From NCBI GenBank assembly GCA_016839555.1, contig JAEOUA010000011.1, positions 224,001-288,000 on the forward strand: 64,000 bases of DNA, read 5' to 3'. Shown one piece after another: positions 41,369-64,000 of the stretch (position 1 is its first letter; each line of letters opens with the position of its first letter). The position numbers and the translations under genes are program-made. Below the pieces are notes generated by a model. The model was not told the DNA's origin. It saw only the letters and a program-made list of their open reading frames with translations, and did not search any database. This stretch comes from Promethearchaeota archaeon (lineage in GTDB: Archaea; Asgardarchaeota; Lokiarchaeia; Sigyniarchaeales; SOKP01).

Positions 41369-41649
41369 ATAATCATATTAAATTCATATAGATATAAACA
41401 TTCCTATATTAAGTTATAAATTTTCATCATTTGAAAAATTATTTCTTCTGAAAATTATTTTATACGAACTTTTTAATAAAAATACTTCTTATTTCATAGA
41501 TTTATATCTTTTTTTATCTGTACATGAAAAATATAGTATTTTATTACTCCGTCTATTAATGATTTTACTCTATATTTATTTCTCGATTTTAGATAAATTT
41601 TTTTAAAAAGTATAAATTATAGTATTCATAAAAAATGTTTTAAAGCTTT

Positions 41650-41722
41650 GGGCCGATGGTCTAGCTGGTATGACGCTTGCTTGACGTGCAAGAGGTCGTG
41701 AGTTCAAATCTCACTCGGCCCA
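41650..41722 (+). tRNA. tRNA-Val(GAC)
   Basis: Acceptor GGGCCGA/TCGGCCC-A, anticodon arm CTTGC-TTGACGT-GCAAG, T-loop GTTCAAATC; CCA not encoded. Confidence 0.96.
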
Positions 41723-41750
41723 TTTCTAAATCCATATATAAAATTTCAAA

Positions 41751-44811: not shown

Positions 44812-44911
44812 TGCGCCCGCCGGGGTTCGAACCCGGGTCACGAGGAATTTACAGAATAACTATAAGTCTCTTCCTTGGCAACCTCGCATACTGCCACTAT
44901 ACTACGAGCGC
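44812..44911 (-). tRNA. tRNA-Gly(GCC) with a 29-nt intron (44847-44875) at canonical position 37/38
   Basis: Acceptor GCGCTCG/CGGGCGC-A, anticodon stem CGAGG/CCTCG, T-loop GTTCGAAC; bulge-helix-bulge: TTGC:GTAA helix, bulges CAA and ATT, outer helix GGAA:TTCT. Confidence 0.95.
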
Positions 44912-48149: not shown

Positions 48150-49349
48150 ATGTCCAGTTTTGATTCAAAATTATATCAGTTCGCGGTGAAAGAAGCAAAC
48201 GAAGCCGTTGCATATGATGGAAAAGGGCAATATCGGCAAGCCATAAACAAATATCAAAGAGCTGCTGAAAGTTTAATCCAATTTATTAAATATAATAACA
48301 ATCAAATTATGATTAAAAAATGTAAAAAACAAATAGAAGAATATCTCGACCGTGCAAAACTTTTAAAATCTCATCTCAATGGGGCAAGATCAATAAAATC
48401 AGCTACTGATAGAGATATCAAAGAAGCTGGTGGAGAAGGAGAAATATCCGACGAGGAACGAGAAATATTGGATATGATTAGTGGAACTATCATAACAGAA
48501 TCGCCCAACGTGAAATGGTCTGATATTGCGGGACTAAAAAGTAGTAAACAAGTTCTAAGGGAAGCCATCGTATTACCCATTATGAAACCCAAATTATTTA
48601 CAGGAGCACGAAAGCCTTGGTCGGGAGTTTTATTATTTGGACCACCGGGATGTGGAAAAACATTATTAGCTAAAGCAGCCGCCTCAGAATGTAAGGCGAC
48701 TTTCTTTAGTGCATCTTCTGCAGATTTATTAAGTAAATGGCTAGGAGAAAGTGAAAAATTAGTTAGCGCTTTATTTAAAATCGGTCGTTTAAGAGCTCCG
48801 AGTTTAATTTTTATTGATGAAATAGATTCTCTTGCCACAAAAAGAGGAGAAGGCTCGGAAAGTGGAGGTGAACGTAGAGTAAAAACCCAACTTCTTAGTG
48901 AAATTCAAGGAATGAAAACCACAGAGAATAAACCTATGTTAGTTTTGGGCGCTACAAATCGTCCATGGGACCTTGATAATGCGATGCTCAGCAGATTTCA
49001 GAAAAAAGTATATGTTCCTTTACCGGATCTTGAAGCAAGAGCGGAGATCTTTAAGATTCACACCAAGGGAGTAAACATGGCTTTAGATGATGAAGACTTT
49101 ATTGAATTAGGTGTTAGATCAGAGAGATATTCTGGGAGAGATATTTCCAATGTCTGTAGAGAGGTCATAATGATGCCCATTAGAGAATTAGATGCTTCAG
49201 GGATGTTAGAACATCCTGAGCAAGAGGTTAAGGTTAGAGATATTACACTTGATGATTTTAAAAAAACTCTAAAAAAAGTGAAACCTATGATGGACAACAA
49301 AGATTTGGCAAGATACGAAGATTGGGCACAAAAATACGGGGAATATTAA
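48150..49349 (+). CDS. vps4: Vps4 AAA+ ATPase (MIT + AAA)
   Basis: MIT domain (AV..D....AI..Y...EYLDRA), PNVKWSDIAGL, GPPGCGKT, SKWLGESEK, IDEID, GATNRPW. Confidence 0.93.
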   Translation: MSSFDSKLYQFAVKEANEAVAYDGKGQYRQAINKYQRAAESLIQFIKYNNNQIMIKKCKKQIEEYLDRAKLLKSHLNGARSIKSATDRDIKEAGGEGEISDEEREILDMISGTIITESPNVKWSDIAGLKSSKQVLREAIVLPIMKPKLFTGARKPWSGVLLFGPPGCGKTLLAKAAASECKATFFSASSADLLSKWLGESEKLVSALFKIGRLRAPSLIFIDEIDSLATKRGEGSESGGERRVKTQLLSEIQGMKTTENKPMLVLGATNRPWDLDNAMLSRFQKKVYVPLPDLEARAEIFKIHTKGVNMALDDEDFIELGVRSERYSGRDISNVCREVIMMPIRELDASGMLEHPEQEVKVRDITLDDFKKTLKKVKPMMDNKDLARYEDWAQKYGEY

Positions 49350-49375: not shown

Positions 49376-50296
49376 ATGGAAAAACAAAGAGATGAAGTAA
49401 AAGAAATTTCAAAAGAGCTTAAAGAAAAAGCTGATAAAGAATTAGAAAGACTCAGAAGAGAGTTATATCGTTTAAGAAAACTAAAAGAGCAAAAAGAAAA
49501 AGAAAAAAAAAAAAAGAAAAAGAAAACCGCTACCGAAGAATTAACTAAAGAATCTGCTTCATCTGTTTCCGAAAAACCAAAGAATATTAGCGGAGTAAAA
49601 GAAATTGAAGAATCATTTGAAGAGATTGATTCTTTATTAAGTCAAGAATTAGAAAAAGAGAATCACAAAACTTATGAAAAAAATGCGAATTATATTGAAA
49701 CCCAATTACAAAAATTAGAACAAGAAATAATTGGAGAAACGGGTCTCATTGAAGAGGAACTTTCGCCTTATGAAAAATTATTAGATGAATATCCTTGGTT
49801 GGAACAACCTCGATATGAATATATGTTTCATATCCCGAATAAAACAAAAAATCCAAATGATTTCGAATCCTGGGTCAATGAATGGAGTAAAATTTTATTT
49901 GATTATGCCAAATATGCGATTTTACATATCCTTTATTTGAGGCAGTTATACACAGAAGCCCCATTTTCTAAATTTGAGAATCGAAAGCAAGCAATCAAGG
50001 AAATTAGTAATTGGTTGGTAAAGCAAGATTTAGCAAGGTGGCTTTCAAAGAAAAAGGAAAAATTAAGGGTGTATTGGAAAACTTTGGATTTAATGGCCGA
50101 AGAAATTTATGACTGGGCTTATGATAGCGGGAAATTAGAGCCAATACTTATTTATGAAATTAGGGAAGCCAAAAAGGAATTTAATGGTCTTCCAAAAGAC
50201 GAATTTGAAAAAATATTTGAAAAACTTTCAGAACAAAATAGAGCAGAAATAATAAAAATAAAAGATCGGATTGCTTTAAAGATCCTTCTCGAATAA
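49376..50296 (+). CDS. vps25: ESCRT-II Vps25 with long N-terminal coiled-coil/Lys-rich extension
   Basis: W..EWSKILFDY, ARW....RVYWK...IYDWA..G....IYEI match Vps25 winged helices; downstream of vps4. Confidence 0.8.
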   Translation: MEKQRDEVKEISKELKEKADKELERLRRELYRLRKLKEQKEKEKKKKKKKTATEELTKESASSVSEKPKNISGVKEIEESFEEIDSLLSQELEKENHKTYEKNANYIETQLQKLEQEIIGETGLIEEELSPYEKLLDEYPWLEQPRYEYMFHIPNKTKNPNDFESWVNEWSKILFDYAKYAILHILYLRQLYTEAPFSKFENRKQAIKEISNWLVKQDLARWLSKKKEKLRVYWKTLDLMAEEIYDWAYDSGKLEPILIYEIREAKKEFNGLPKDEFEKIFEKLSEQNRAEIIKIKDRIALKILLE

Positions 50297-50617
50297 TGGA
50301 AATTTCTTTTCCATAAACTTAAGAATTTTTTCCCTTTTATAATGATTACAGAATGCTGAATTACAATCAAAGGGGTGATGACATTCGTTAATATGCCCGA
50401 ATTCGCAGAACATACACGAAAATATTTCATCGTCAAATAATTCTCTTTCATCTCTGGGACAAAAGGCGTGACCATATTGAAGGGTGATCATCCTTCTGAG
50501 ATTTCTGAGTTTTATTTTATCGTAAGCGGATTTCTCTTTCTTCTCTTCTAAGCGTTTGACTGCTTTAATGATGGTTATAATTGCTTCTGCGTGGTGATTG
50601 CTTATTTTTTGAGCCAT
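50276..50617 (-). CDS. Cys/His-rich hypothetical protein overlapping the left att site
   Basis: CPRD..CMFC..GH..ECH....C....CNH. Confidence 0.7.
   Translation of the reverse strand: MAQKISNHHAEAIITIIKAVKRLEEKKEKSAYDKIKLRNLRRMITLQYGHAFCPRDERELFDDEIFSCMFCEFGHINECHHPFDCNSAFCNHYKREKILKFMEKKFPLFEKDL
50277..50296 (+). repeat. Left attachment-site-like repeat (current 3' end of vps25)
   Basis: taaagatccttctcgaataa = K-I-L-L-E-stop. Confidence 0.8.
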
Positions 50618-50620
50618 TGT

Positions 50621-50815
50621 TTAGATCAGTCCCCGTTCTTTGAGTGGATTTTTACGGTGGCATTCATAACATTCGTCATAATCGGGTTCAATATCTCCGT
50701 AGCCACAATAAGGGCAGTGCAACACTCCATCCATTACTGCGGTTTTCAACATATCGAGGAGTCCTTTTTGCGTTATTTCTCTTTTTACAAAATTTTTATT
50801 CATTTTTGGTTTCAT
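50621..50815 (-). CDS. Small double-CxxC zinc-ribbon protein
   Basis: CPYC...EPD...CYEC...NPL. Confidence 0.72.
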   Translation of the reverse strand: MKPKMNKNFVKREITQKGLLDMLKTAVMDGVLHCPYCGYGDIEPDYDECYECHRKNPLKERGLI

Positions 50816-50867
50816 CTCTTTTTTGATTTTTAAGGTTTTTTATTGGTTTATTTGGTGTTTGAAAAAA

Positions 50868-51149
50868 TTAGAATTTGCCCCATAAATGCCGATATTTATC
50901 GTTTTCGTCTTTACTGCGGGGGGCGTATTTTTCGGCGTGTTTCTGGGCGATGTAAAATATTGAGTTTCTGGTGTGTCGTGCCTTAAAAAAGCATTCTCTA
51001 TCGCAAAACGTGAAACCAAAGGGATCGATGAAAAAAGATTTCTCTATCTGGATCTGCTTTGAACAATAACAGCAATAATAAGTTTTTGTTGTGTGTTTGT
51101 TTCGGGGTAAGTAAAATAAGTTAATCTTTTCTAACTTTTCGTCAAACAT
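50868..51149 (-). CDS. TRASH/FCS-type zinc-finger small protein
   Basis: CCYC...FCDREC. Confidence 0.68.
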   Translation of the reverse strand: MFDEKLEKINLFYLPRNKHTTKTYYCCYCSKQIQIEKSFFIDPFGFTFCDRECFFKARHTRNSIFYIAQKHAEKYAPRSKDENDKYRHLWGKF

Positions 51150-51171
51150 TATTACATAAATGAGGCAATCC

Positions 51172-51201
51172 TTTTTAAATCATAATAGGGTAATGATTTA
51201 G
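51172..51201 (-). promoter_or_regulatory. Shared promoter motif copy A
   Basis: Coding strand ctaaatc-attacc-CTATT-atg-ATTTAAAAAG; TATA ~22 nt before the ATG at 51149. Confidence 0.55.
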
Positions 51202-51221
51202 AATAATTGAACTTAATCTCA

Positions 51222-51282
51222 TAATCTATGAGCATTTCAAATATTGTTTTATAATAAAATGGAGTTTTCTACTCATAGATTA
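51222..51282. repeat. 11-bp perfect inverted repeat, 39-nt spacer
   Basis: taatctatgag / ctcatagatta. Confidence 0.7.
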
Positions 51283-51643
51283 GAATAAAGAATATTTTGA
51301 ATAAAATCTCTCCTGCTATATACAATTTCTTAATCATTCTCATCAATAGAATTGGAGAAGATACAAAATAAATAAAAAACTAGTAGTTCTTTTTCAGGTA
51401 AAAGCTAAAAATTTCAATCTTCATCCGATCCTTACCAAAAAATATATTTAAATTTCTTTACCTGAGCAAAATAAAAATCTCTCGTTAATATCCCAAAAAA
51501 GAATTTTGGTGTTTTAATTCTGTGTGGTAAAATTCAATAATATCTTAACAATGTTAATATTGATCTTAACTTATAAAAAAAAAGTAAAAATAGGAAAAAA
51601 CAAAAAAATGTAAGTATAAATAGGAAATTTTTGGATCTTTAAC

Positions 51644-51868
51644 CTAATTTCCCAAAAAAATACGATTCAATTCCACCTCGAAATTAATACCATTTAATCT
51701 CTTAAGCATTGTTTTAAGTGTTTTAAATTTTTTAATTGCTTCTGCTGTTGTTTTACTGCTTGTGTCACATAAATGAAAAATAGTTTGGTCGTCATCTGGG
51801 TGTTCTATTAAATATTTCGTTAAGGTAAAAATTTTTTCTATTAGCGAATTTATTTGATCTTTATTCAT
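51644..51868 (-). CDS. Hypothetical protein
   Basis: 74-aa ORF with upstream promoter motif. Confidence 0.6.
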   Translation of the reverse strand: MNKDQINSLIEKIFTLTKYLIEHPDDDQTIFHLCDTSSKTTAEAIKKFKTLKTMLKRLNGINFEVELNRIFLGN

Positions 51869-51916
51869 TTTATTTGATTAGATTTTTGTTTATTATGTAT
51901 AAACATACAATATTCA

Positions 51917-51947
51917 TTTAAATAATGAAATAGCGTGGTGGATTATT
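51917..51947 (-). promoter_or_regulatory. Shared promoter motif copy C
   Basis: Coding strand aataatc-caccacg-CTATT-tcat-TATTTAAA. Confidence 0.55.
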
Positions 51948-52083
51948 ATAAATATATCCGATCTTTAACTTTATAGATATTTCAAATCGTCTTGTGAGGG
52001 GAATAGAATCCATTTTTTAATAGTTTAGTAAAATAAAGAAAAAAAAAATAGAAAAAAAAAGAAAATATAAGAGTTTAAAATGG

Positions 52084-52428
52084 TTAGAATTTGCTATATA
52101 TCACCTTTCCCGTTAATCTGTCAAAAATCTTTCTGCATGTTGGACAAATAAGATATTCTCCGTTGTCAAATAACTTATTCTTGCATAAACAATCAAATTT
52201 GGTTTCCTTAAGGTTTGATAAATCCATCTTCATTTTCTTTTCTCCGATTATGGTATTTATAATCTCTTTAAACTTTGGAATCCATTTTAGCAATAAGATA
52301 TAGATGGATTCTTCTAAAGTTTGCTTTTCTAAGGGTTCTAAATTGTAGATAAAGGTATATCTCTCTTCTAAAAATTCTATTATTTCATCTGTCATAATGT
52401 CTAAGGTTTTATTAACCAGTGCGTTCAT
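52084..52428 (-). CDS. Hypothetical protein with C-terminal zinc ribbon
   Basis: CLC...CPTC; overlaps the upstream ORF. Confidence 0.6.
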   Translation of the reverse strand: MNALVNKTLDIMTDEIIEFLEERYTFIYNLEPLEKQTLEESIYILLLKWIPKFKEIINTIIGEKKMKMDLSNLKETKFDCLCKNKLFDNGEYLICPTCRKIFDRLTGKVIYSKF

Positions 52429-52735
52429 CTCCTTTTTGCTGTGAAATTTGGGGTTGATGAGAAAAGATATTCGGTTTATGGTTTTGGGCGATCCATTTTC
52501 CGATATCTTTAAAAAAATGGGTAATATCTCCGTTGTGAAAGTCGATTTTGACTAATTGCATTCTAATCTGCTGATGGATGGCGGGATCACAATGTTTAAT
52601 ATACTCAATGATGACCCCTAAAGGCATATAATGATATGTGTTATCATCGTCAATAAACTCGAAAGCAGTTGCTTCTGCGTCTATCTCCTTTTCTTCCAAT
52701 AGTCGTTCTAACCATTTGTTAAATTGAAGGCTCAT
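52412..52735 (-). CDS. Phage/plasmid-type hypothetical protein
   Basis: KWL...EEK.ID...LVKIDFHNGD..HFF pattern, recalled from mobile-element hypotheticals and not verified. Confidence 0.7.
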   Translation of the reverse strand: MSLQFNKWLERLLEEKEIDAEATAFEFIDDDNTYHYMPLGVIIEYIKHCDPAIHQQIRMQLVKIDFHNGDITHFFKDIGKWIAQNHKPNIFSHQPQISQQKGDERTG

Positions 52736-52756
52736 ATAATATAAATAGAGTTCTGG

Positions 52757-52786
52757 CTTATTAATGTGAATAGACTAATGATTTAG
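52757..52786 (-). promoter_or_regulatory. Shared promoter motif copy B
   Basis: Coding strand ctaaatc-attagt-CTATT-cac-ATTAATAAG; 16/18 identical to copy A; TATA ~21 nt before the ATG at 52735. Confidence 0.55.
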
Positions 52787-52995
52787 TTATTTTCATCTGG
52801 ATTTTTCTATTTTTGGAATAATTCGATTATAAGATATACATTGAAAGAAAAAAAATGAAAAAATTTTGAAATTCAATATTCTGTAATAGAAAATTTCACA
52901 TTAAAGGAATTATCTTTATAATAATTGAGGAGAATTGAGAATTTTTATTCTCATTTATTCTCATATTTTCAGCAAAAAGGAAAAAAAAGAGTGAA

Positions 52996-53220
52996 TTAAA
53001 ATATAGGTATTTTAGATTTAGGAAATTTTATAGAAGGGTTATCCATTCTGAAAGTTATATAATCATCTGGGTTACGAGTCAATGCGTTCTCAAAATCATA
53101 ATTCTTGATATTCTCGATCAGTTCTTTTGTTAAGAGTTCTTTGAGTTGTTCATTAGAATACTGAGAAGTGTTAATACCTAAATCTTGAGTGCTTAGTTTA
53201 ACTTTAAAGATTGCTTCCAT
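52996..53220 (-). CDS. Hypothetical protein
   Basis: 74-aa ORF with upstream promoter motif. Confidence 0.6.
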   Translation of the reverse strand: MEAIFKVKLSTQDLGINTSQYSNEQLKELLTKELIENIKNYDFENALTRNPDDYITFRMDNPSIKFPKSKIPIF

Positions 53221-53290
53221 TTTGGCTTCCTTTTATTTTTATATGAGGTATTAATAATAGTTTTTATTGAATTTATTTAAACAAAAATCC

Positions 53291-53321
53291 TTTAAATACT
53301 AAAATAGAGCATTAGATTATT
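53291..53321 (-). promoter_or_regulatory. Shared promoter motif copy D
   Basis: Coding strand aataatc-taatgct-CTATT-ttag-TATTTAAA; 24/31 identical to copy C. Confidence 0.55.
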
Positions 53322-53585
53322 GTAAAAATTAAAAAAAGAATTAAGTAAAAAAAGAAAAGAAAATTTCTGTTTCTAATATATATTTGGTCTCCCATCTTGC
53401 CATAGTCTTATAGTAAGAATAGGAATGATATATATCTTGTTTCTGGATCTCATAAACAGAATCGCTTAAAATAATTCTTATACCTTTATTCACCATTAAG
53501 AATTGAATTTTTTTTATTCTATTGCTGAGATTTTATATTCCTTATTTTAAAGAAAGTTTCATAAAACAGAGCAAAATCTTTTTTC

Positions 53586-53975
53586 TTATTGACTGATATA
53601 GTTTTGTAGGTTATAACTCTTCATAGCTCTCTTGATAGTTTGTATCAATGATTTGATTGTAAATGGTTTCTCTAAAAAAGAAAAAGCTCCGCAGGCGAAA
53701 GCCTCTCTCTTTATTCTTTTATCTCCTGTAATAAAAATAATTTTTATATTAGGATCTATTTGTAAAATTTCTTTTGAAGCTTCTATGCCGTTCTTTTTCG
53801 GTAAATGATGATCCATCAAAATCACTTGAGGTTTACTTTTGAATGCCTTAAACATTGAAATTGCTTCTTCTCCATCCTCTGCTATCCTTACTACTTCAAA
53901 ACCGTTTAATCTTAAAACTTTTTTATAAAAGGAATTTAAAGATTTGTCATCTTCGACAATAAATATTTTATCCAA
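53586..53975 (-). CDS. Stand-alone response regulator receiver (CheY-like)
   Basis: VEDD, ILMD phospho-Asp, ITG, EKPF. Confidence 0.92.
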   Translation of the reverse strand: MDKIFIVEDDKSLNSFYKKVLRLNGFEVVRIAEDGEEAISMFKAFKSKPQVILMDHHLPKKNGIEASKEILQIDPNIKIIFITGDKRIKREAFACGAFSFLEKPFTIKSLIQTIKRAMKSYNLQNYISQ

Positions 53976-54092
53976 TTTAATCCCTTAACCTAATTTTATA
54001 CCCAATAATTGTGTGAATTCTAATCAATCTCATATAAATTACAGATAGTTCGGTATTTAAATATTTCGATCCCATATAGAATGTAGATAAAA

Positions 54093-54305
54093 ATGAATGG
54101 GGAGATAGTTAAATATAGATTTTATAAGGATACATCACAAAGTCTTATTACAATTCCAAAAGCAATTGCTAGGTCATTAAATTGGAATGATAAAGATGAT
54201 ATTCATATGGTTATAACAACTATTGAAAATAAATTGGGTGTGTTTCTATTTAAAGACTCAGAGAAAAAGTCCGAGAAAAAGTACCTAAACCAAAAATTTC
54301 TCTAG
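54093..54305 (+). CDS. AbrB/MazE/SpoVT-like DNA-binding protein
   Basis: SLITIPKAIARSLNW..KD.I swapped-hairpin pattern. Confidence 0.75.
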   Translation: MNGEIVKYRFYKDTSQSLITIPKAIARSLNWNDKDDIHMVITTIENKLGVFLFKDSEKKSEKKYLNQKFL

Positions 54306-54703
54306 GAAAAATAAAGATAAAAAGAGAAAAAAAATAGATGTCCTCGCTTAATATCATAACTTATAAGAAAAGGTTAGAATAAGATCTACTCTATAGAGTT
54401 CTATAAAGTAATTCACTAAAAGACAAAAATCCAGGGATTTAAGCAAGGTTATCTATTTTTTTAACAAGACCTTACTTTTTTACTGATTCGTCGAATAATT
54501 ATAAATATGATTCCTATTTAAATTTAAGTATAAAAAAGCCATATATTCATAAAAATTAAGATTTCCTATAAGATAAATTATTTTAATGTAAATGTTTTCA
54601 AGAATCTCTGTGGAGTTGAAGCAGGAAAGAGATTGACACCATTATTTTAGATATATGAATCATTATATTAATTTCCATAAAATAGATGGGGTTATATGAA
54701 TCT

Positions 54704-54970
54704 TTATACTTTCCTAATGTCCACTTCAATGACATCTCCTGCGTTCAGATCTAATTTTTCAGCAACATAATATCGGATGGATACTCCTTTCGAACTCCCT
54801 ACCCAACGTACTTGGCGTGTCATAGTATGCGAGGGCTTATTTTCTACAGCCTTAAAGATTTCTATTTCTACGAGATCGCCGACATCGAGTTCTAATCCGT
54901 CAATAATATGTGATTGGATGATAAAACCCAATGTTCTGCCACTTTCAATAAGTAATACCGTATCTTTCAT
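54704..54970 (-). CDS. Tandem AbrB-like DNA-binding protein
   Basis: Internal duplication: GRTLGFII...LELDVGDLVEIEI / GSSKGVSI...LDLNAGDVIEVDI. Confidence 0.75.
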   Translation of the reverse strand: MKDTVLLIESGRTLGFIIQSHIIDGLELDVGDLVEIEIFKAVENKPSHTMTRQVRWVGSSKGVSIRYYVAEKLDLNAGDVIEVDIRKV

Positions 54971-55170
54971 GGGAATCTACATGTAAAAATTATTATTTTT
55001 TCAAAGTTCTACTTGTAATACTACCTAAAATCTCTACTATTATTTAAGATTTCACTTAATCATTTAATATTTTGATTAAATGTATTCAACTCCTTCCTTA
55101 GTTTCACTATAATAATCAGAGCTTTCATTATATCTTATTTATTTATCACAATTAATTCACCATATTAGAT

Positions 55171-55210
55171 TATGATATCATCATAAAGATTTAAATATGA
55201 TCTTATCATA
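55171..55210. promoter_or_regulatory. Two palindromic operator-like sites TATGAT-N3-ATCATA around a TATA box
   Basis: tatgat-atc-atcata (55171-55185) and tatgat-ctt-atcata (55196-55210), 25 bp apart, with tttaaata between them and overlapping the second. Confidence 0.7.
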
Positions 55211-55268
55211 ATATTATCTTGTATTATCTCCATAAAATATCAGGTAAATAAAAAATAAAAACATTAGA

Positions 55269-55622
55269 ATGAGTACTTCAGACCATCCATCAAAGCTAAC
55301 ACCTAAACCTAAGAAAATATCCTTAATTTATTCACAATTTATCGAAATTCTCAGTGAGAGCTTGGAAGATAATTTTGATGTGTGGTTTGTTTGGGTTACT
55401 AAACTCCTTATACAGCTTTTACACTCAGATACACTAAAAGGGGAGTATCTGACCAACTTTTTACGGATTTTTACTTCCTTAACACATAGGAAAAAATTGA
55501 TTTCTCCAATTCCAGAAGGGAAAGACATTCACACATTATCAGCTCAAAAAAAAGCTCACATAAAAGAAATTCTTGAGGATTTAATATTTTTATCTGAATA
55601 TAAAGACAAAGAAGAGGTATAA
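55269..55622 (+). CDS. Hypothetical protein, first gene of putative tfb operon
   Basis: 117-aa ORF. Confidence 0.6.
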   Translation: MSTSDHPSKLTPKPKKISLIYSQFIEILSESLEDNFDVWFVWVTKLLIQLLHSDTLKGEYLTNFLRIFTSLTHRKKLISPIPEGKDIHTLSAQKKAHIKEILEDLIFLSEYKDKEEV

Positions 55623-55680
55623 TAATATTCAAGATCCTCACCATAAAGTTAGGCAGGAAATTAATAGGATACGAAAGAGA

Positions 55681-56214
55681 TTGGATTTACCTCTCTCGAT
55701 TAACGAGCAGATCTATATTATATTTCAGGAAATCGAGAAATGTGCTATTCAGACAGATCCTCTGAAACTCATACCGCTCTTATTCCTTCTCTATTTAAAC
55801 ACAAATAATTACTTTCTAAGCTTGGATAAAATTGCCAAAATATCCTATATTTCCGTAAATGAGTGCTTATCCTTTACTGAGGATCTCCGAAGGTTTGAAT
55901 TTGACGAAAAACGATGCACGTTTCAAAATATTAAAACATTTAACCTTACGTTTTCGAAATTCCGCAAAAAATATGGAGTTTGTCCCGTATGTAATACTAA
56001 ATTAGATGAGGAATATTTGAGGCTCTACTATTTTGATAGATTGTATGACCGTCAGAAACTTAAGGAAAATCTCAACAATAGGTTGAGCCGGGAAAAATCC
56101 TTTCGATATGTATATGAGAGACGGATCACCCTCAAAATTCCCTGTATTATCTGCTTTCTGGAGTTATTACAGCAATTAAATTATAAAAATGTACCCATTG
56201 GAGTAAATCAATAA
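55681..56214 (+). CDS. Hypothetical protein with split CxxC...CxxC Zn site
   Basis: CPVC and PCIIC. Confidence 0.6.
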   Translation: MDLPLSINEQIYIIFQEIEKCAIQTDPLKLIPLLFLLYLNTNNYFLSLDKIAKISYISVNECLSFTEDLRRFEFDEKRCTFQNIKTFNLTFSKFRKKYGVCPVCNTKLDEEYLRLYYFDRLYDRQKLKENLNNRLSREKSFRYVYERRITLKIPCIICFLELLQQLNYKNVPIGVNQ

Positions 56215-56240
56215 AATAATAAAATAGGAGTGTATATAAT

Positions 56241-57545
56241 ATGATTGTTCAAGATTGTTTGTATAATAATAATAGTAATAATTTAGATGTATGTGACCTT
56301 AGCTGTGAGTTATGTCATTCCTCTGAAATTAGAGAAACCCAACAAGGGTATGTGTGTGCCGAGTGCGGGTGCGTTTTAGATCTTCCCATTTTAAAATATC
56401 ACGTGCCCTATACCCAAAAAAAGATCCATTATGAAGTATCTGTGGGAAATACCTTTCTTGGATTACAAAAAGAACGAAGATCCAATCGACACTCTCCCAA
56501 ACTGAAGCGATTACACAAACTTCAGTGTTCCCAATCATATCAAGATATGGTATATCATGATACAGAGATCGAAATTTGCCGGATTCTGGCAGGATTAGAT
56601 CTCCCCCACACCTTTAAAGATCCTATCTTCAAAACCTTTAAAGAACTTTGGGGTAATTATTCACAGAGAAGTCGGTTTCAAAGTATTGAGAAATTAATAC
56701 CTGTTCTTATCTATTATTTCTGCAAAAAGCAATACATATCCATAAATGAACATGAACTATTGGAAATCGCTAAGGTGAATAGAAAACAATATATTTATTA
56801 TAAATTGAAATTTCTTGCCCCTCCCTCTGCATATAAGAATGCTAATCGAAAAAAGCTTATAAAATCAAAATTGTTTAGGCTGGCAGTTGAGTTAGGTTTG
56901 GGAATGGATTTCTACCACGATGCAGTAAAGTTGTTAAATAAACTATATAAAGAGATTTGTTGCACGAAAGAGAGTGTGATCGCGGGACTTATCTCATCGA
57001 TTGTAGTATTATGTCGTTATAGAGAGGAAATAACTGTCAATTCCATCTGTAATTACTTCAATATAGCAATGAGTACCATTCAATCGCGGGTTAAACGGCA
57101 TTTTATAGAAAAATTTAAGGTCGTCGGATTCGAAAGCCTGGTAAAATCGGCTCATATCATCAAAACGACTATTTATAAGTTAGGGATCTTCGAAGAACCG
57201 TCCGGAGAACAAATCAATGAGCCATTCAAAGAGCTTTATGTTACCATAGAAACGAATGCTACTGAAGAATCAGAAGAAGGAGACTTCTTTTCCGAAACTC
57301 TTGATACCCCTAAAATAATTCAAGTGAAAGCAATCTATAGAAACTTACGCAAGAGATTTCCCAGACTCCAGAGATCCTATAATTGCTTCCTCTTTATTCT
57401 TCAAAATCGATTTGATTTACACCCCATCTTCATCTCTCTATTATTGCCAACCAATTCGATTATGCATATTCTCAAGCAAAATGGAAATAAAGCCATACTG
57501 AAAAGAATGACCAAATATTTATACCCTTCAAAAGGACCTCCATAA
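56241..57545 (+). CDS. Divergent TFB/TFIIB paralog with C-terminal extension
   Basis: Zn ribbon CELC...GYVCAECGCVL; two cyclin-like repeats (EICRILAGLDLP..; ..L.L....Y..A..L..; HTH-like TVNSICNYFNIAMSTIQSRV); AGGAG upstream. Confidence 0.75.
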   Translation: MIVQDCLYNNNSNNLDVCDLSCELCHSSEIRETQQGYVCAECGCVLDLPILKYHVPYTQKKIHYEVSVGNTFLGLQKERRSNRHSPKLKRLHKLQCSQSYQDMVYHDTEIEICRILAGLDLPHTFKDPIFKTFKELWGNYSQRSRFQSIEKLIPVLIYYFCKKQYISINEHELLEIAKVNRKQYIYYKLKFLAPPSAYKNANRKKLIKSKLFRLAVELGLGMDFYHDAVKLLNKLYKEICCTKESVIAGLISSIVVLCRYREEITVNSICNYFNIAMSTIQSRVKRHFIEKFKVVGFESLVKSAHIIKTTIYKLGIFEEPSGEQINEPFKELYVTIETNATEESEEGDFFSETLDTPKIIQVKAIYRNLRKRFPRLQRSYNCFLFILQNRFDLHPIFISLLLPTNSIMHILKQNGNKAILKRMTKYLYPSKGPP

Positions 57546-57564
57546 TACACTCATTTATCACAGT

Positions 57565-57713
57565 AATATTCCTTCATTGAAGGAGTATTCATCAAGATAA
57601 GAATTTCACCGAGATTTCTGGATTTTTGTCTAATAATCTTTTGTTTGATTGACGCAAAGAAAAGATTCGCTCTCATTCCTTTTTTGATCATCTCGGATGA
57701 TCCTTCTTATCTT
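57565..57713. other. Multi-stem structured non-coding segment downstream of the tfb-like gene
   Basis: aatattccttca/tgaaggagtatt; aagataagaa/ttcttatctt; ccgagat/atctcgg; aatctttt/aaaagatt. Confidence 0.6.
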
Positions 57714-58074
57714 TATCTTTTTCTCTTTTTCTTTTAAAAAATGATTTTATGTATCACTTATTTCTCTAATATAAGTCATTAAAGTGAAAAATTTTCCTGT
57801 TGGATTAGGATTTCTACTTATATTGTATTTTATTTCTTTTATCAGTGGTACAAATTTAAGTCTATAATTGTCAAGGGTTGGATTAAATTTACATTTCTTG
57901 TATTAAAAATTAAATGTCTTTTAATAAAATCGGTATAAACATTTATAAGTCAATTTAATTATACTATTAATAATAGCAGTCGATTTATTTCTATTTATTT
58001 AAATTTTCTTAGAATTTGAGGGTTGAAAGATACATCGAAATGCAGGAGCTATACAAAGAAAATATAATTAAAAA

Positions 58075-58850
58075 ATGAAGATACCAAAACAGCTAAAAAA
58101 AAATAGAAATTTTAAATTTAACCAGAAAAATACTAAAACATATTTGAGATTGCTTAAAAGTGAGTTCAAAACTCATTTTAAAGAACTTATGGTTAGATTT
58201 AATGATAAAAGAAATATTAGGTTTATTTCGAAAAATGGCAAAAGTATTTTCCCATTTGATGAAAATCAAGCTTATAATGAGTATGATTTCAGAGTATTTT
58301 GGCATAAGAATCAGATTGAAATAGTATATAATGATGAAATAATCGAAAAAAATCTTCTTAGAAAGTATAAACTCACCTTTTTGAAAAATCTATTTAGTCA
58401 AATAGCACATCACGAATATGCTCATACAAGACAATTCGAATCAATGTTCTATAAATATTCTCAATCTATTTATAATGAGATTTTCAATAAAGATTTAGAG
58501 ATTATTTCATCTGATGATATAAAGAGATGTGATATAAAATATAGATCTATTACACAAAAAATACAAAAATCTCTTAAAAATATTCATATACTATATATTG
58601 ACCATACTTTTATTGAGTTTTGGGCGAATTCAATTATATATGATGAAATAGACTCTAATCGTCCCGCAGAAAGGCTGATAGAAAGAAGAGACTTAATGGT
58701 TGATAAAGAATGTTTATACCCTGATCATATTTTAAATCCTGAAATAAGATATGGAAAGAGAATTTTAGACCTTTTGGAATTATCCCAAGAACATTTTATC
58801 TTTAAAGACTGGGAACCATTAGAAAATCTTTTCAAAAGATTGAATCGATT
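58075..58850 (+). pseudogene. HEXXH metallopeptidase-like gene, 3'-truncated (the 58075-59106 ORF reads through into foreign sequence)
   Basis: IAHHEYAH plus downstream EFWAN; after ~58845 base composition changes and the translation becomes out-of-frame-like. Confidence 0.6.
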
Positions 58851-58916
58851 CGTACGTTTCAACTCATCCCCTCGGATGCGCCCCCTCTTAAGTCTAACAT
58901 TACTTCTATTACTATT

Positions 58917-61900
58917 ATGTCATTCCAATTATTCGGCGAGTTCTCTTTCGATTCTTCAATCACATTATATCCCAACGAGTTCACTTACGACTCTTCGACG
59001 GGGAAAGTATCCATCAAACCCGCTGCTTTCGAACAGATTAGGGCGAGAACCAGCAATATGGAGTGGTCGAGCAATTCTCACTCTGAAGCGAATCTTCTCT
59101 ATATAATATCCCTTGAATCCGTGCGCTCCATTTATAGTACCGAGGACGATCTCTCGTTGTCGCAGGCAAAGCAAATAATGCTCATGCAAGGCATTCAGAT
59201 GGGCATCGTCGATTATATGAACGAGTATGTCCAAGGATTTGCGAAGGCTCAGCTGGATTATCAGACCGGGTATAATTTAATCATAGCATCGGTTAAAATT
59301 GTGGCGACCATTATCGCGATAATTGCGACTAAAGGTGCCCTGGGCGGAATTGAAGCGCTTAAGCAAAGTTCAGCAGCTAGCGCTTCGGATGCGTCAGGAA
59401 GTGCTTCGGGTTCGGCTGCTGGTGGTTCGAGTTCGGCAGCTGCCGGCACAGGTGAAGCATATATTGGTCTTGATGGTATCCTCTATAATGAATTCGGGGT
59501 AGCTGTCGATGTTGCCGGCGGAATTGCCGTAGACTACGCTACCGAAACCGCCAAAGAAGTCATCAACACCTATTTGGAACAAAGCTTGGTGCAAATGTCA
59601 AATAGACTCGTACAATCCCTTTCTATTCAACAAATTTTGAAAATTGTGGTTCCATCTGTCGGTCAGTTGTCCGTTCAAGGGCTTTCAGAAGTTTCCCTTA
59701 CGCAAGTAATTACACAATCCATTGAGCTATCCATCGGACTCGACGGCAGCATCGTCGGACTCATCGGCGGCTATTTACTGACCGATATATTCGGCGAGAT
59801 AAGCAACCCGCAGCTCTATGTTCTCTCCCAGGAACTCGCCTCCATGCAAGAACAGCTCGCCTCTCCTACTAAATCGGCTCGGCTTACCCCGCAATTGGCA
59901 CAAGTCTTCTTTGAGCTTCGCCCCTATGGATTTGCGGGCGCCTCGGCACAAGAATTGCAGAAATTAACTCCAAGTGCGGTTGAAGTGGTTAATCAGGATG
60001 AAAAAGAGCGTCAGATGGCAGAAAATGCTCAAGACTATGCCGAGTTCATAGCGTGGTTGGAGATGGTGTTTGGCCTTATCAATATGACTATATGGGAATG
60101 GTATGAATTTTTAAATCGACCCTGGGATTATTCCATTTTCGATGAGATACGGGAGTTTAGACTGTGGGTAGAGGGGGGAATTTCCGATAATTATATTACG
60201 AACGAAGAGATTAAGAATAATCGCATTTATCAGAAATATCTGGAACTTTACCGTAGGAATAAGGAAGAATTTGCCCGAAGATTGGCTCGATACGATGAAT
60301 GGACAAAAGAGGCGGAAGTTTACTCCTTACGGAAGGCAATGAAAAATTATACAAAGCAAACCAGCAGATCCCCTTGTTTTCAATCAACAAATAAATTTAA
60401 AGGTAAATTTATTACATGGTTTCAAGAACATTATAACATACCATTCCCCCTTCACGATGAAGAGATACGGGAAAAGTTTTACAACATATATCCCGCCTTC
60501 ACTCGAATTCTTTTAGAGCATTTCGAAATCTATGACTCTTTTGAGAATGTTATGGACGACCCCCTTGATGTAGTGGAATGGGTAGAAAAATTAACGGGCA
60601 GGTTTAAGAAATACAACAATTCTGACTTAAAGCCCGCCCTATATAATGAACCTCGTGGTGGTCGTGATCTCTATAATATTGAAGGGGCGCCCTCTAGTAC
60701 ATCTTTTTATCCTTATGTTAAGATCTTCATTCGGGAAGCGTTCCGATTTGCGTATGAAAATGGAATGCGAAGGAGATTAACCCCACAAGAAGTGTCTCTT
60801 ATCCGTTCCTTGGCTCTGGATAAAACAATAACTACCTATCAAAAGATCGTCCGTGCCGTTCAAAAGGCCTCCAAGCCCGACGAGGGAAAGACCCTTGAAT
60901 TAGTCACAACACCCCGAGATTTCTTAAATTTCATGCTTCAAGCGGCAAATAATCCTGATTTACACCCTTCGCATGTTCGTGTGATAATTCGTTGGGTCGA
61001 GGGAGCGCAAGAGTATTCTCCACAAATTCGTAGAATTTATTTAAATCCTCACCGTAAATTGGACGGGTGGTATAAATCTACGGCTTTAACAGCAAAAAAT
61101 ATTAGAGAGATGGTAGAGCAATATGGATTTGAAATAGTATACATGACCGACGAGCAGATAAACAATGAGTTGAATAGAGTACGGAACGATCCGAAGAGGG
61201 GTGTTAATAACATTAGGTTAACCGTTCGATGTACAAGATGCCACACGGTTCAAACCAAATCGCTTTATAGTATACAGACATCTGCGCATTGTAGCTATTG
61301 TATGCCAAAGATTTATACCAATGAAGCGTATGCCCTCAAAGTATTAACCGAAATACTCTCGAAGCAGTCCAGCTCTTTCGACAGCTTTCTCAGGACCGAC
61401 CTTAAAGGAAACAAACTCCCCAAACTCCAAGCAACCCCTCTCTGGAGAAATCAGCATGTATATATCAAGGATCTGATCCACCCCCTTAAGAAAGGCGCGT
61501 GGATTCTCAATAAACATGGACAATGGGAATGGAATAAAAACTATTACCAATATGAAACGGATACGGATTACATAAAATTCTTCTGGAGCGTACATGTAGA
61601 TGGTGCAATATTTGTAAAGGTAAAACTAAAGAACTCCGACCAATTTGTCAAACAAGCAGACGGCACCGACATGGTATTCAAATTTCTATTAGAACGCCAG
61701 GGAGAGCAGCATCAAACCTCATGGAAGGGATTTATAGCGTGGCTCCGATTACATGGGGAAAACACCATCGCGGATATCGTAGAGCCCATTGGCAACATTG
61801 AAGATACACTTATCGTTCGGAGGTTAACACCTAAACAAAAGGACATACTTGATAAAGAGCATGAAAAATGGCTCAAGCAACTGCAACGAGATCGGGATAA

Positions 61901-62189
61901 AGTTAAGCTGTTTGAGTATCACCAGAAAGACGGGTTCTATCTGCTGGTGATGGACCATACCGTGAAGCCCGACCAAATGCTTCAGTTCCTCTGCGCTCAG
62001 ATTACCGAGATCGTTAATTTACATTTGATTGAGACCATAGAGAATATTCGGGGCGAAGATCTTGTATCTTTTGAGGAGATACGACAGATCCTAGAGGATA
62101 CCCTGATGCCTTACGGCAAATATATTCCTTGGTTAAAGCAGAGAAGAGTATGGGGAGATATAACGGATTATCTTAATAAAACGGGATAA
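58917..62189 (+). CDS. Probably 5'-truncated large membrane protein with C-terminal Zn ribbon and Vsr/DUF559-like endonuclease (polymorphic-toxin-like)
   Basis: Frame open back to 58806; TM plus Ala/Ser/Gly linker; CTRC...CSYC; NE..., VDG, ERQGEQH, QRDRDK motifs. Confidence 0.6.
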   Translation: MSFQLFGEFSFDSSITLYPNEFTYDSSTGKVSIKPAAFEQIRARTSNMEWSSNSHSEANLLYIISLESVRSIYSTEDDLSLSQAKQIMLMQGIQMGIVDYMNEYVQGFAKAQLDYQTGYNLIIASVKIVATIIAIIATKGALGGIEALKQSSAASASDASGSASGSAAGGSSSAAAGTGEAYIGLDGILYNEFGVAVDVAGGIAVDYATETAKEVINTYLEQSLVQMSNRLVQSLSIQQILKIVVPSVGQLSVQGLSEVSLTQVITQSIELSIGLDGSIVGLIGGYLLTDIFGEISNPQLYVLSQELASMQEQLASPTKSARLTPQLAQVFFELRPYGFAGASAQELQKLTPSAVEVVNQDEKERQMAENAQDYAEFIAWLEMVFGLINMTIWEWYEFLNRPWDYSIFDEIREFRLWVEGGISDNYITNEEIKNNRIYQKYLELYRRNKEEFARRLARYDEWTKEAEVYSLRKAMKNYTKQTSRSPCFQSTNKFKGKFITWFQEHYNIPFPLHDEEIREKFYNIYPAFTRILLEHFEIYDSFENVMDDPLDVVEWVEKLTGRFKKYNNSDLKPALYNEPRGGRDLYNIEGAPSSTSFYPYVKIFIREAFRFAYENGMRRRLTPQEVSLIRSLALDKTITTYQKIVRAVQKASKPDEGKTLELVTTPRDFLNFMLQAANNPDLHPSHVRVIIRWVEGAQEYSPQIRRIYLNPHRKLDGWYKSTALTAKNIREMVEQYGFEIVYMTDEQINNELNRVRNDPKRGVNNIRLTVRCTRCHTVQTKSLYSIQTSAHCSYCMPKIYTNEAYALKVLTEILSKQSSSFDSFLRTDLKGNKLPKLQATPLWRNQHVYIKDLIHPLKKGAWILNKHGQWEWNKNYYQYETDTDYIKFFWSVHVDGAIFVKVKLKNSDQFVKQADGTDMVFKFLLERQGEQHQTSWKGFIAWLRLHGENTIADIVEPIGNIEDTLIVRRLTPKQKDILDKEHEKWLKQLQRDRDKVKLFEYHQKDGFYLLVMDHTVKPDQMLQFLCAQITEIVNLHLIETIENIRGEDLVSFEEIRQILEDTLMPYGKYIPWLKQRRVWGDITDYLNKTG

Positions 62190-62378
62190 ACTCTGTGGAT
62201 TTTTTCTCGTTTACTTTTTATATTATTTTTGCAAAGAATATAATACGATCTAAAAGAACGAAATGATAATGAAAGATAAAAGAAAAAAATAAATATGAAG
62301 GTTGTTGTTATTTATATAATTACCAGCGCACCATTACAGTTTTATCAGTTTAAACCACTAAAAAAAGATTAATATAAA

Positions 62379-63371
62379 ATGGTTGTCGTATTTTATTGGG
62401 TTCAAAGCGAAGAAGAGCGGCTTGCCTTTTACGAATATTATTGGAACCCTCAAACGTATTTTTCTCATCATAATTCCATGATTTTGTTCGAACCCATTAC
62501 GCTAGATGATGGTAAGATTTTTGGGGAGAAAGACATACCCTCCGTGGTGCTGGAGTTTTCCGCGGGGTGGGATACAATTAAAGATATGATCAAAAAAAAC
62601 ATCGTGGTCGAAGAGCGTGTACTTTTATTCGATGACTTGAAGGATGAGGAGAGATATAATGAATTTATGATAAATTTAACGCAAAACCACAATGCATATA
62701 AAGGGTTTGATGCTGGTTCTTACGATATGATAAGATATCTCCATCGTCTTAACTATCGTTATATCGACGGCTCGATTCCTTCCCATGATTTAATAGAGTT
62801 GGAAAACTGGCTTATCTATTTACCCTCGAAGACGCTTCACGACGCAATCTTGGACGCCCTTTTTGAGGAGAACAAGCTTCAAAACTCATTTAGTTACCTA
62901 TTCATAAGGGATATATTGGAAACGAAAGATGGTTGCACTTTCGGTAAGGAAAACAAGCATACCTTGTTTATACACATCTTTTCCACCTTTCATAAGAACG
63001 CGGTTTACGAATTAATCGAAAAGGGCATCATAGAGAAACGACTGGCAATTCAACAGCGACACATCAAGGATTCTATGTTTCAAGATGCGCGAGATCGCGA
63101 TTTACGTAATATGACGCTTTTTTTGGTACTTCTAGACAAGGTAAGATTTAAGTATTATTTTTCCAAAAAACCTTATCGATTTGAAGACGGCTCCCGCCTA
63201 ACACTGGACAACTCCAACTTGTTTCAGAGAAAATTGGATTGGTGGGCGTCAAGGATGATAAAAGAAGAAGACTACTATTGTCCCGCGTGCAAGACAAAAG
63301 TTGAGCAGCGAACTATAAACTTTCGTGAGAAGGGGGAATTCTGTAATCTCTGTTGGGCTAAATTAACTTAA
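62379..63371 (+). CDS. Hypothetical protein with C-terminal zinc ribbon (candidate partner/immunity protein)
   Basis: CPAC...CNLC; same GC-richer composition as the upstream gene. Confidence 0.65.
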   Translation: MVVVFYWVQSEEERLAFYEYYWNPQTYFSHHNSMILFEPITLDDGKIFGEKDIPSVVLEFSAGWDTIKDMIKKNIVVEERVLLFDDLKDEERYNEFMINLTQNHNAYKGFDAGSYDMIRYLHRLNYRYIDGSIPSHDLIELENWLIYLPSKTLHDAILDALFEENKLQNSFSYLFIRDILETKDGCTFGKENKHTLFIHIFSTFHKNAVYELIEKGIIEKRLAIQQRHIKDSMFQDARDRDLRNMTLFLVLLDKVRFKYYFSKKPYRFEDGSRLTLDNSNLFQRKLDWWASRMIKEEDYYCPACKTKVEQRTINFREKGEFCNLCWAKLT

Positions 63372-63622
63372 AACTCATTTAAAAATGATTTTTTTTATTA
63401 CTCATACCTATTAGCTTGAAACTCTCAATTCTAAATTTTAATATTTTATCTTATATAAATTTACTTTCAGATCATCTAAATGATATTACTATTCTTTTTG
63501 ATCCCAAAGGTTAAAATTTCAAAAAATACCGAAGAAATATTTAACAAAGGAGACAGAATTAACTCCACAACAAATAAATGAAATAGCAATAGAATTGCTA
63601 CTGAAATGGGGAAAAAAAAAAA

Positions 63623-63642
63623 TAAAGATACTTCTTGAATAG
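63623..63642 (+). repeat. Right attachment-site-like repeat (displaced vps25 3' end)
   Basis: taaagatacttcttgaatag = K-I-L-L-E-stop; 17/20 identical to the left copy, mismatches at third codon positions. Confidence 0.8.
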
Positions 63643-63739: not shown

Positions 63740-64000
63740 TTATATGCTTGGGAAAAACCATTGCTTCCCTTTTAGCATTGATTCTGTATATTTAGCTAGT
63801 CCGCTATCTTCCAAGGATTTTAATGATTTAAGCGCTCTACTCTGGGTCCATTGCAATTCATTAATAATATTTTCCAAGGAAATGACGCCCTCTCCTCTTT
63901 TTTTTACTAATTCAATAATTTTTTGTTCATCTTGAGTGTATTCAATAGGGAAAAACTGAACCATTACTGCCCCAGATTTTACTTCTTCCACATTTTCTAT
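63740..64000 (-). CDS. ESCRT-II Vps22/36 (EAP30) C-terminal winged helix (5' part outside window)
   Basis: VQFFPIEYTQDEQKIIEL...ELQWTQSRA...L...GLA....WFFPSI aligns by eye with the Vps22 C-terminus; frame open to window end. Confidence 0.8.
   Translation of the reverse strand: MENVEEVKSGAVMVQFFPIEYTQDEQKIIELVKKRGEGVISLENIINELQWTQSRALKSLKSLEDSGLAKYTESMLKGKQWFFPSI

Follow-up and report, generated by a model that had tools for sequence, protein, structure and literature searches.

A probable 5′-truncated polymorphic-toxin-like gene with a predicted Vsr-like nuclease end, and its candidate immunity gene, on an insertion at vps25 in a Promethearchaeota genome

The window analysed here is a stretch of 64,000 nucleotides from a Promethearchaeota metagenome-assembled genome (MAG; 3.74 Mb in 12 contigs, 29–30% GC, labelled G000), corresponding to positions 224001-288000 of a 312-kb contig (G000:C11:224001-288000). 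Close to its right-hand end, a large gene for a membrane protein that ends in a zinc ribbon and a predicted nuclease domain is followed by a second gene of the same base composition, and both lie in a 13.4-kb insertion at the 3′ end of vps25. With a probability of roughly 0.65, we read this pair as an orphan-like, 5′-truncated polymorphic-toxin-like gene with its cognate immunity gene, carried as cargo of the vps25 element. What leads to the reading as an orphan-like toxin/immunity module is that the scaffold stays constant while the ends are unrelated, that the downstream partners match the ends and that spare truncated cassettes carry a junction motif. The coordinates of all the features discussed are collected in Table 1.

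Residues of the large open reading frame (ORF; 1127 codons) are counted from 58806, immediately behind a stop codon at 58803-58805; its ATG is at 58917, and the database gene call begins at a GTG at 59121. The partner ORF has 330 codons. GC content over 58.85-63.4 kb is 0.40-0.48, versus 0.22-0.32 in the surroundings, and the GC content at third codon positions (GC3) is 0.447 for the large ORF and 0.453 for the partner, while host genes have 0.20-0.26 and the HExxH-motif gene upstream has 0.198; the gap between island and host genes at this position marks a difference in codon usage, not in amino-acid content. The initial annotation of this DNA, made from its letters alone, had reported both ORFs with their coordinates, the common composition of the two genes and a set of sequence motifs. 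The GC3 values agree with the second of these observations, and the translation contains every motif, with CTRC at residue 809, CSYC at 829, HVDG at 930, ERQGEQH at 963 and QRDRDK at 1027. A repeat search found no long exact direct repeats bordering the GC-rich island.

As judged from alignments with its relatives, the large gene is a 5′-truncated (“beheaded”) copy. Its remaining N-terminal module (N-module) is 35-38% identical to residues 218-404 of a paralogue in the same genome (P0008) and to residues 669-867 of a metagenomic protein of 1599 aa (P0009). Residues 11-37, upstream of the ATG, align with paralogues as well, so the frame upstream of the ATG, which the initial annotation had described as open to the compositional junction, is real coding sequence. 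Relatives extend for 217 to more than 660 residues upstream of the point that matches window residue 11, in line with the proposal that the gene is the remnant of a larger membrane protein. Likewise, positions 203-724 of a family hidden Markov model (HMM; 730 positions) match window residues 10-521, and since the match begins at position 203, HMM positions 1-202 and everything upstream of them are missing from the window copy. Full-length relatives possess a transmembrane (TM) hairpin, a conserved ~400-aa loop and a third TM helix; the window copy retains only the third, which is aligned in all family members at window residues 157-175. The Ala/Ser/Gly-rich linker noted at the outset is thus found where expected (residues ~188-216), but the several hydrophobic helices described with it reduce to one clear TM helix here, the number being three in the full-length relatives. 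Going by the closest architecture-mates, the ancestor of the window copy would have been at least about 1350-2000 aa long.

The onset of homology, at ~58836, coincides with the switch from AT-rich to GC-rich DNA. The HExxH gene that precedes it (motif AHHEYAH) continues out of frame into the large gene as far as 59106, and it lacks ~95 residues relative to its only relative in 135 genomes, a protein of 352 aa in G247 to which it is 28% identical over 295 aa. The position of the homology onset at the composition switch, together with the truncation of the HExxH gene, indicates that the junction fuses two truncated genes. We had also entertained the HExxH gene as a DUF4157-type toxin-associated peptidase; this assignment found no support in Pfam and was dropped.

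The family to which the large gene belongs is restricted in its distribution and variable in its length. A HMMER search of 1.84 billion representative proteins returned 12 relatives (best E 6.6e-120), and among 400 genomes of the phylum, family matches occurred in 17 of the 134 from the window's own family and in none of the 266 from elsewhere. Relatives are single genes amid ordinary genes and range from 1100 to 5235 aa, those with an N-module from 1104 to 2758 aa. The homologues are therefore not uniform proteins of ~1090 aa with invariant C-termini, as the alternative posed by the initial annotation would have had it, since they carry unrelated ends; its suggestion of a giant protein holds for some relatives (3454 and 5235 aa). 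No Pfam, NCBIfam, PHROGs or PADLOC family was matched above threshold by the three window proteins or ~25 relatives, and the protein family as a whole matches nothing in Pfam, PHROG, PADLOC or the PDB sequences. Neither profiles nor single proteins retrieved a PDB sequence (the nuclease-family profile finds none at E <= 10), an N-module pattern search of genome contigs gave no relative, and the leads that the ESM Atlas offered for the partner and the middle region all stayed below 0.9.

Modularity was assessed by an all-against-all BLASTP comparison of 13 family proteins. The N-terminal and central parts are 30-54% identical between proteins whose C-termini differ, and the last 400-700 residues are unrelated: L026 and L028, for instance, are 54% identical over ~1450 aa and then diverge into unrelated sequence, and the pairs L022/L026 and L024/L026 behave in the same way. 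End types also recur on distant N-terminal parts (L022 with L023; L024 with P0009; P0001 with P0006 and L034). The order in full-length members is a variable N-terminal extension, the TM hairpin, the ~400-aa loop, the third TM helix, a linker and an exchangeable C-terminal domain. Between linker and end, the window copy has a middle region common only to proteins with the same nuclease type, seen in the match of P0006 residues 407-990 to window residues 505-1110 (E 4e-66) and in matches of P0005 and P0010. Other end types are followed by leucine-rich repeat (LRR) proteins, as is the case for both L022 and L023, which share one end type. For the identity of these other ends, a GIY-YIG reading (P0009 at ~1248, L022 at ~929, L023 at ~884) consisted of by-eye motifs that Pfam did not confirm and was not used.

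The last ~330 residues of the window protein align with 22 relatives, and the CxxC...CxxC ribbon lies just upstream. D932, E963, G966, Q968 and H969 are invariant in alignments of both 15 and 23 sequences, W1022 and D1029 are invariant in the former, and D1029 is conserved in at least 90% of the latter. For the ribbon, sub-threshold matches to DUF4379 (a treble clef) were obtained in four of nine relatives (E 2e-4 to 4e-2). In this copy, ~70 extra residues are inserted between helix 1 and strand 1 of the nuclease domain, and they account for the mediocre predicted local distance difference test score (pLDDT 65) of the model predicted for the window domain; that model matches I-Bth0305I, a RAP domain, VRR_NUC and Vsr best (Z 4.2-4.9). 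Much better was the AlphaFold model of a compact homologue (L032, 215 aa; pLDDT 90, predicted template-modelling score 0.85), for which an exhaustive VIA search against the PDB placed Vsr first (1cw0_A, Z 8.7, 116 residues, root-mean-square deviation 3.0), followed by the FASTKD4 RAP domain (9gek_A, Z 8.3), I-Bth0305I (3r3p_B, Z 8.2; 95/98 residues), the NGO0050 endonuclease-like structure (3hrl_A, Z 7.1) and ~20 further PD-(D/E)xK nucleases; the lower matches include Can2, VC1899, VRR_NUC, Cdn1 and Bax1. In the model, D932, E963, Q968, H969 and D1029 are predicted to fall on strand 2, strand 3 and the long helix. The nuclease fold expected by the initial annotation is thus recovered in the predicted structures, and the matches to Vsr-type folds, taken with the lack of any Pfam or PDB-sequence match, point to a fold of the Vsr branch in a new sequence family. 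The end of the protein is accordingly predicted to comprise a zinc ribbon and a Vsr-like PD-(D/E)xK nuclease. With the Vsr/DUF559/I-Bth0305I/RAP branch it would share the core fold and the succession D ... ExxGxxH ... D/R, the last in the following helix. It differs from that branch in its E-x-[QH]-G-x-Q-H motif, with the invariant Q-H, in the treble-clef-like ribbon placed upstream and in forming the fused end of a large membrane protein.

Of 135 genomes of the family, 48 have the nuclease domain, as local HMMs and whole-genome searches showed; the frames that contain it range from ~135 aa up to 3454 and 5235 aa, and in every ORF looked at in detail the domain stands at the extreme C-terminus. 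The ranking of the I-Bth0305I homing endonuclease among the top fold matches, the existence of stand-alone forms of 135-250 aa and the zinc-ribbon (DUF4379-like) repeats that precede the nuclease in stand-alone forms would all suit a homing-like selfish nuclease, that is, a mobile zinc-ribbon and Vsr-like (EDxHD-type) gene fused to the 3′ ends of large genes, next to a downstream gene unrelated to it. We regard such an origin as quite improbable, given that the domain is always in frame at the C-terminus behind a shared middle region, that the viral contigs of IMG/VR contain no relative of the nuclease and that the downstream partner, conserved in 11 loci, has no role in homing.

In this partner protein, a ~130-aa domain occurs twice in tandem and is followed by a C-terminal CxxC...CxxC zinc ribbon; no TM helix was seen on reading its translation, hydropathy not having been computed. 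Homologues are present in 25 of the 135 sampled genomes of the one family, the sample within which the breadth of the partner family was gauged. Of the 17 best partner matches, 11 lie directly downstream of a nuclease match and on the same strand (in G000, G275, G274, G230 with two, G225, G189, G175, G245, G168 and G165). The proteins encoded upstream of them vary from a 121-aa frame cut by the contig start (G165) through one of 388 aa up to 3454 aa, and include a protein of at least 1495 aa with the N-module and nuclease architecture (G168:C155). The adjacency gives substance to the toxin-immunity-like pairing proposed in the initial annotation, and the partner is, on sequence evidence, probably the immunity protein of the nuclease. 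A search with the partner alignment among proteins of 30-69 aa, an uninformative length class, found none. The family further includes a lone gene, with no nuclease gene alongside, in G247:C61 (L061; 9193-9621, minus strand), and the window genome has a weak second match at G000:C6:40621-41004.

Evidence for the exchange of ends was found in the window genome itself. P0008 (C4:292273-295611), which is 5′-truncated relative to P0009 and followed by an LRR protein, carries the junction motif KKVNTQSQTHEKT at residue ~681, a variant of which occurs in P0009. A spare cassette is situated 2.5 kb away on the opposite strand (C4:298980-300398(-)); its 472-aa ORF begins at KKLNTQSEAHEKT, matches the C-terminal end of P0008 (E 3e-25) and shares with P0008 the junction pattern KK[LV]NTQS..HEKT, and it has an LRR partner of its own that is 38% identical to that of P0008 (E 9e-56). 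At the junction motif, the GC3 of P0008 drops from 0.45-0.67 to 0.20-0.30, a trace left where a resident end of AT-rich DNA was joined to a GC-rich constant part. Two more family copies stand at contig boundaries, one at the start of C7 with an N-module and a diverged nuclease (G000:C7:3-4076(+)) and one at the end of the window's contig (G000:C11:308841-311750(-)). The assembly may have broken at these two places on the repeated family, and full-length genes may exist unassembled. In the sister species G275, a ~6-kb insertion (G275:C98, L029, 6952-13078), recognised by comparison with a syntenic stretch of C8 of the window genome, holds, beside two AT-rich ORFs, the 5′-truncated nuclease gene P0010 (706 aa) and its partner of 331 aa, which has a GC3 of 0.46. 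Tyrosine integrases (Pfam Phage_integrase) are encoded 0.4-4 kb from cassettes in L030 (11828-12751, E 3e-42) and L027 (2925-3833, E 7e-23).

The window pair, too, belongs to an insertion. A 17/19 repeat at 50277-50295 and 63623-63641 marks its ends, a decayed copy of the vps25 3′ end, closing with ...KILLE-stop, occupies 63502-63642, and three sister genomes have the empty site, in that the DNA of window positions 63740-64000 follows their vps25 within ~20-50 nt. Taken together, the terminal repeat, the decayed vps25 end and the empty sister sites identify the putative toxin remnant and its partner as the right-hand cargo of the insertion. To the left of this cargo, the inserted DNA is AT-rich, with genes for AbrB/MazE-like proteins, a response regulator and a TFB-like protein; no integrase and no ParA/MinD was found among its ORFs, the Pfam scan having given only MazE/AbrB-like and response-regulator domains. 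The GC-rich part may belong to the same element or may be a second element integrated in tandem. The location of the pair inside an insertion and beside its right end, the finding of related pairs as insertions elsewhere near integrases, and the existence of short stand-alone nuclease and partner pairs (L030, L032) are also what would be anticipated of an addiction (toxin-antitoxin-like) module that would keep the 13.4-kb element stably in the chromosome and play no part between cells. This explanation is unlikely in our judgement: the same nuclease ends membrane proteins of 1500-5235 aa, which is not the architecture of an addiction module, and a beheaded copy would be an odd stabiliser.

Two further origins, an aloposon remnant and an assembly chimera that joins foreign GC-rich DNA to the contig, are together very improbable. 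Aloposons of Ca. Heimdallarchaeum carry tandem genes for proteins of 3000-6000 aa, Otus and Ephialtes, are integrated at a tRNA gene downstream of the giant genes and have four upstream genes that include one for a MinD/ParA-like ATPase (Wu et al. 2022, PMC8813620). The window module resembles them in its Asgard host, in its location on an integrated element and in its large or giant genes, some relatives being frames of 3454 and 5235 aa. It differs in having a single truncated 1127-codon gene instead of a tandem giant pair, in lacking the four-gene block with MinD/ParA and in its insertion in a protein gene, at the 3′ end of vps25 with no tRNA at the site (the only tRNAs of the window are at 41649-41723 and 44812-44911), and its family was found in one Asgard family only among the 400 sampled genomes of the phylum. 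The initial annotation had itself doubted an aloposon, and these features agree with that doubt. As to a chimera, the MAG has an estimated contamination of 6.4%; however, host-like DNA flanks the island on both sides within the 312-kb contig, so that two mis-joins would be needed, and the right flank is syntenic with the sister genomes.

The combined evidence was set against what is known of polymorphic toxins, which have been described as rare in archaea and there mostly borrowed from bacteria (Zhang et al. 2012, PMC3482391). The BLASTP comparison of the 13 proteins revealed common N-terminal and central parts with unrelated C-termini, the gene neighbourhoods (11 nuclease loci, and LRR proteins for two other end types) revealed a downstream partner that co-varies with the end type, and spare 5′-truncated cassettes with a partner of their own were found in the C4 cassette, in P0010 of G275 and in the window copy. 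As in the bacterial CdiA-CT/CdiI, Rhs and MafB systems (PMC3482391), then, a constant N-terminal and central part is combined with unrelated, nuclease-type ends; the downstream partner changes with the end and includes LRR proteins, Imm-LRR being a named class of immunity proteins (Zhang et al. 2012, PMC3482391); spare ends are 5′-truncated and accompanied by a partner; a short conserved motif marks the swap point; and a constant region of foreign composition is joined to a host-like end. In contrast to the bacterial systems, the constant part is an undescribed, TM-anchored one confined to one Asgard family, it comes with neither a known trafficking module (type V, VI or VII secretion systems, Rhs/YD or HINT) nor a releasing peptidase, Pfam has no model that fits the toxin or immunity families, the archaeal host has no outer membrane, and the cassettes are scattered on insertions instead of being arrayed behind the main gene. 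By its sequences, this would be a kind of system known from bacteria, with a scaffold, a nuclease subfamily and a partner family that match no curated family. The papers in the full-text library searched that mention both Asgard archaea and polymorphic toxins describe no such system, as judged for the most part by their titles and abstracts.

If the toxin reading is correct, the zinc ribbon and nuclease would bind and cut DNA by means of D932, E963, H969 and a divalent metal; the C-terminal domain would be exposed or delivered to other cells and be toxic there, and the 330-aa partner would stay in the cytoplasm of the producer cell, binding and blocking the nuclease. The C-terminal part of a three-TM protein would lie outside the cell if the long N-terminus is inside, an arrangement that would fit export. 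The beheaded copy would no longer make a deliverable toxin, and its immunity gene may still protect the cell. More broadly, it is about an even chance that one Loki-type Asgard family conducts conflicts between cells with a polymorphic nuclease-toxin system of its own, built entirely from undescribed modules: a three-TM anchoring or delivery module, a zinc-ribbon and Vsr-like toxin, a new immunity fold and LRR immunity proteins, with ends and antidotes moved between strains by small integrating elements.

Several observations weigh against the toxin and immunity reading. The 3.4-kb frame is intact and has an internal ATG and GTG, so that expression of a shortened protein is possible, and the window N-module is only ~36% identical to its own-genome paralogues, which is too little for the window copy to serve as a donor in recombination within this genome. 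Of 28 partner-family matches, only 11 adjoin a detected nuclease, and about half of the strongest nuclease matches, mostly stand-alone forms of 400-520 aa, have other downstream genes. On the side of the nuclease, neither structural model gave a Foldseek match in the PDB at E <= 0.001, and no Pfam Vsr, DUF559 or other nuclease model was matched by P0001 (at E <= 1) or by the relatives. Finally, no domain for secretion or trafficking, no signal peptide and no releasing peptidase was recognised with Pfam in nine large members, P0001, P0006, P0008 and P0009, and P0012 gave only a sub-threshold NADAR match, which leaves the TM topology as the only ground for deducing export.

That no export signal was found in the family is also compatible with a defence system against viruses or plasmids, in which a membrane-anchored sensor with an exchangeable nuclease effector would cause abortive infection in its own cell and the downstream gene would be a regulator or antitoxin. 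The swapping of effectors on a constant scaffold is typical of defence systems too, the module rides on an integrated element with AbrB/MazE-like genes, and defence nucleases of the Can2, Cdn1 and Cap4 types are among the fold matches. We nevertheless hold this to be improbable, if the least so of the alternatives, since PADLOC matches neither P0001 and P0002 nor P0008, P0009 and L026, the partner type co-varies with the end type, and spare 5′-truncated ends with partners, along with lone partner genes (G247:C61), are hallmarks of toxin and immunity modules and not of known defence systems. The interpretation as a truncated polymorphic-toxin-like gene with its immunity gene is the one that we retain.

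Table 1. Features of the toxin-like gene pair and of the insertion that carries it, in positions of the window.
Feature	Position	Strand	Basis
Large membrane-protein gene, 5′-truncated, of a lineage-specific family	58806..62189	+	ORF, GC3, family HMM
Remaining N-module, residues 11-201, including the DDLS..Q motif block	58836..59408	+	homology to P0008/P0009
Single predicted TM helix, residues 157-175	59274..59330	+	Kyte-Doolittle 19-residue window, score 2.17
Ala/Ser/Gly-rich linker, residues ~188-216	59367..59453	+	translation
Middle region, residues ~505-800, common only to proteins with the same nuclease type	60318..61205	+	matches to P0006, P0005, P0010
Zinc ribbon CxxC...CxxC, C809-C832	61230..61301	+	alignment; DUF4379-like treble clef in relatives
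Predicted Vsr-like PD-(D/E)xK nuclease domain	61206..62030	+	alignments, fold searches
Candidate immunity gene, 330 aa	62379..63371	+	conserved adjacency to the nuclease domain
AT-rich/GC-rich junction; two truncated genes fused out of frame	58830..58850	.	GC, GC3, ORFs
AT-rich HExxH (metallopeptidase-motif) gene, 3′-truncated	58075..58840	+	ORF; relative in G247
Strain-specific 13.4-kb insertion at the vps25 3′ end, holding both genes	50277..63642	.	terminal repeat, decayed vps25 end, empty sister sites

Genes to the left of the insertion mark the host as an Asgard archaeon. A Vps4 gene (48150-49349), whose relatives are 66-84% identical and all labelled Promethearchaeota/Promethearchaeia (including Loki_b31), precedes the Vps25 gene of endosomal sorting complex required for transport II (49376-50296; Pfam ESCRT-II). 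Within the insertion, the AbrB/MazE-like genes are at 54093-54305 (+) and 54704-54970 (-), with sub-threshold matches to Pfam MazE_antitoxin, and near them is the TFB-like gene (56241-57545), which has no Pfam match. Of the two window tRNAs, that at 44812-44911 (-) is a 100-nt Rfam match of 51 bits that ARAGORN missed, and it is probably an intron-containing archaeal tRNA.

The window copy is only a truncated remnant, useful as a way into the family and, with its partner, as a candidate toxin/antidote pair ready for testing. Such modules travel on an element that targets an ESCRT gene. If confirmed, the system would add to the known Vsr-like nucleases and immunity folds one new member each, and it would be relevant to how cells interact in the archaeal lineage that is closest to eukaryotes; if true, it would offer the first testable handle on how cells of these eukaryote-related archaea fight or recognise each other.

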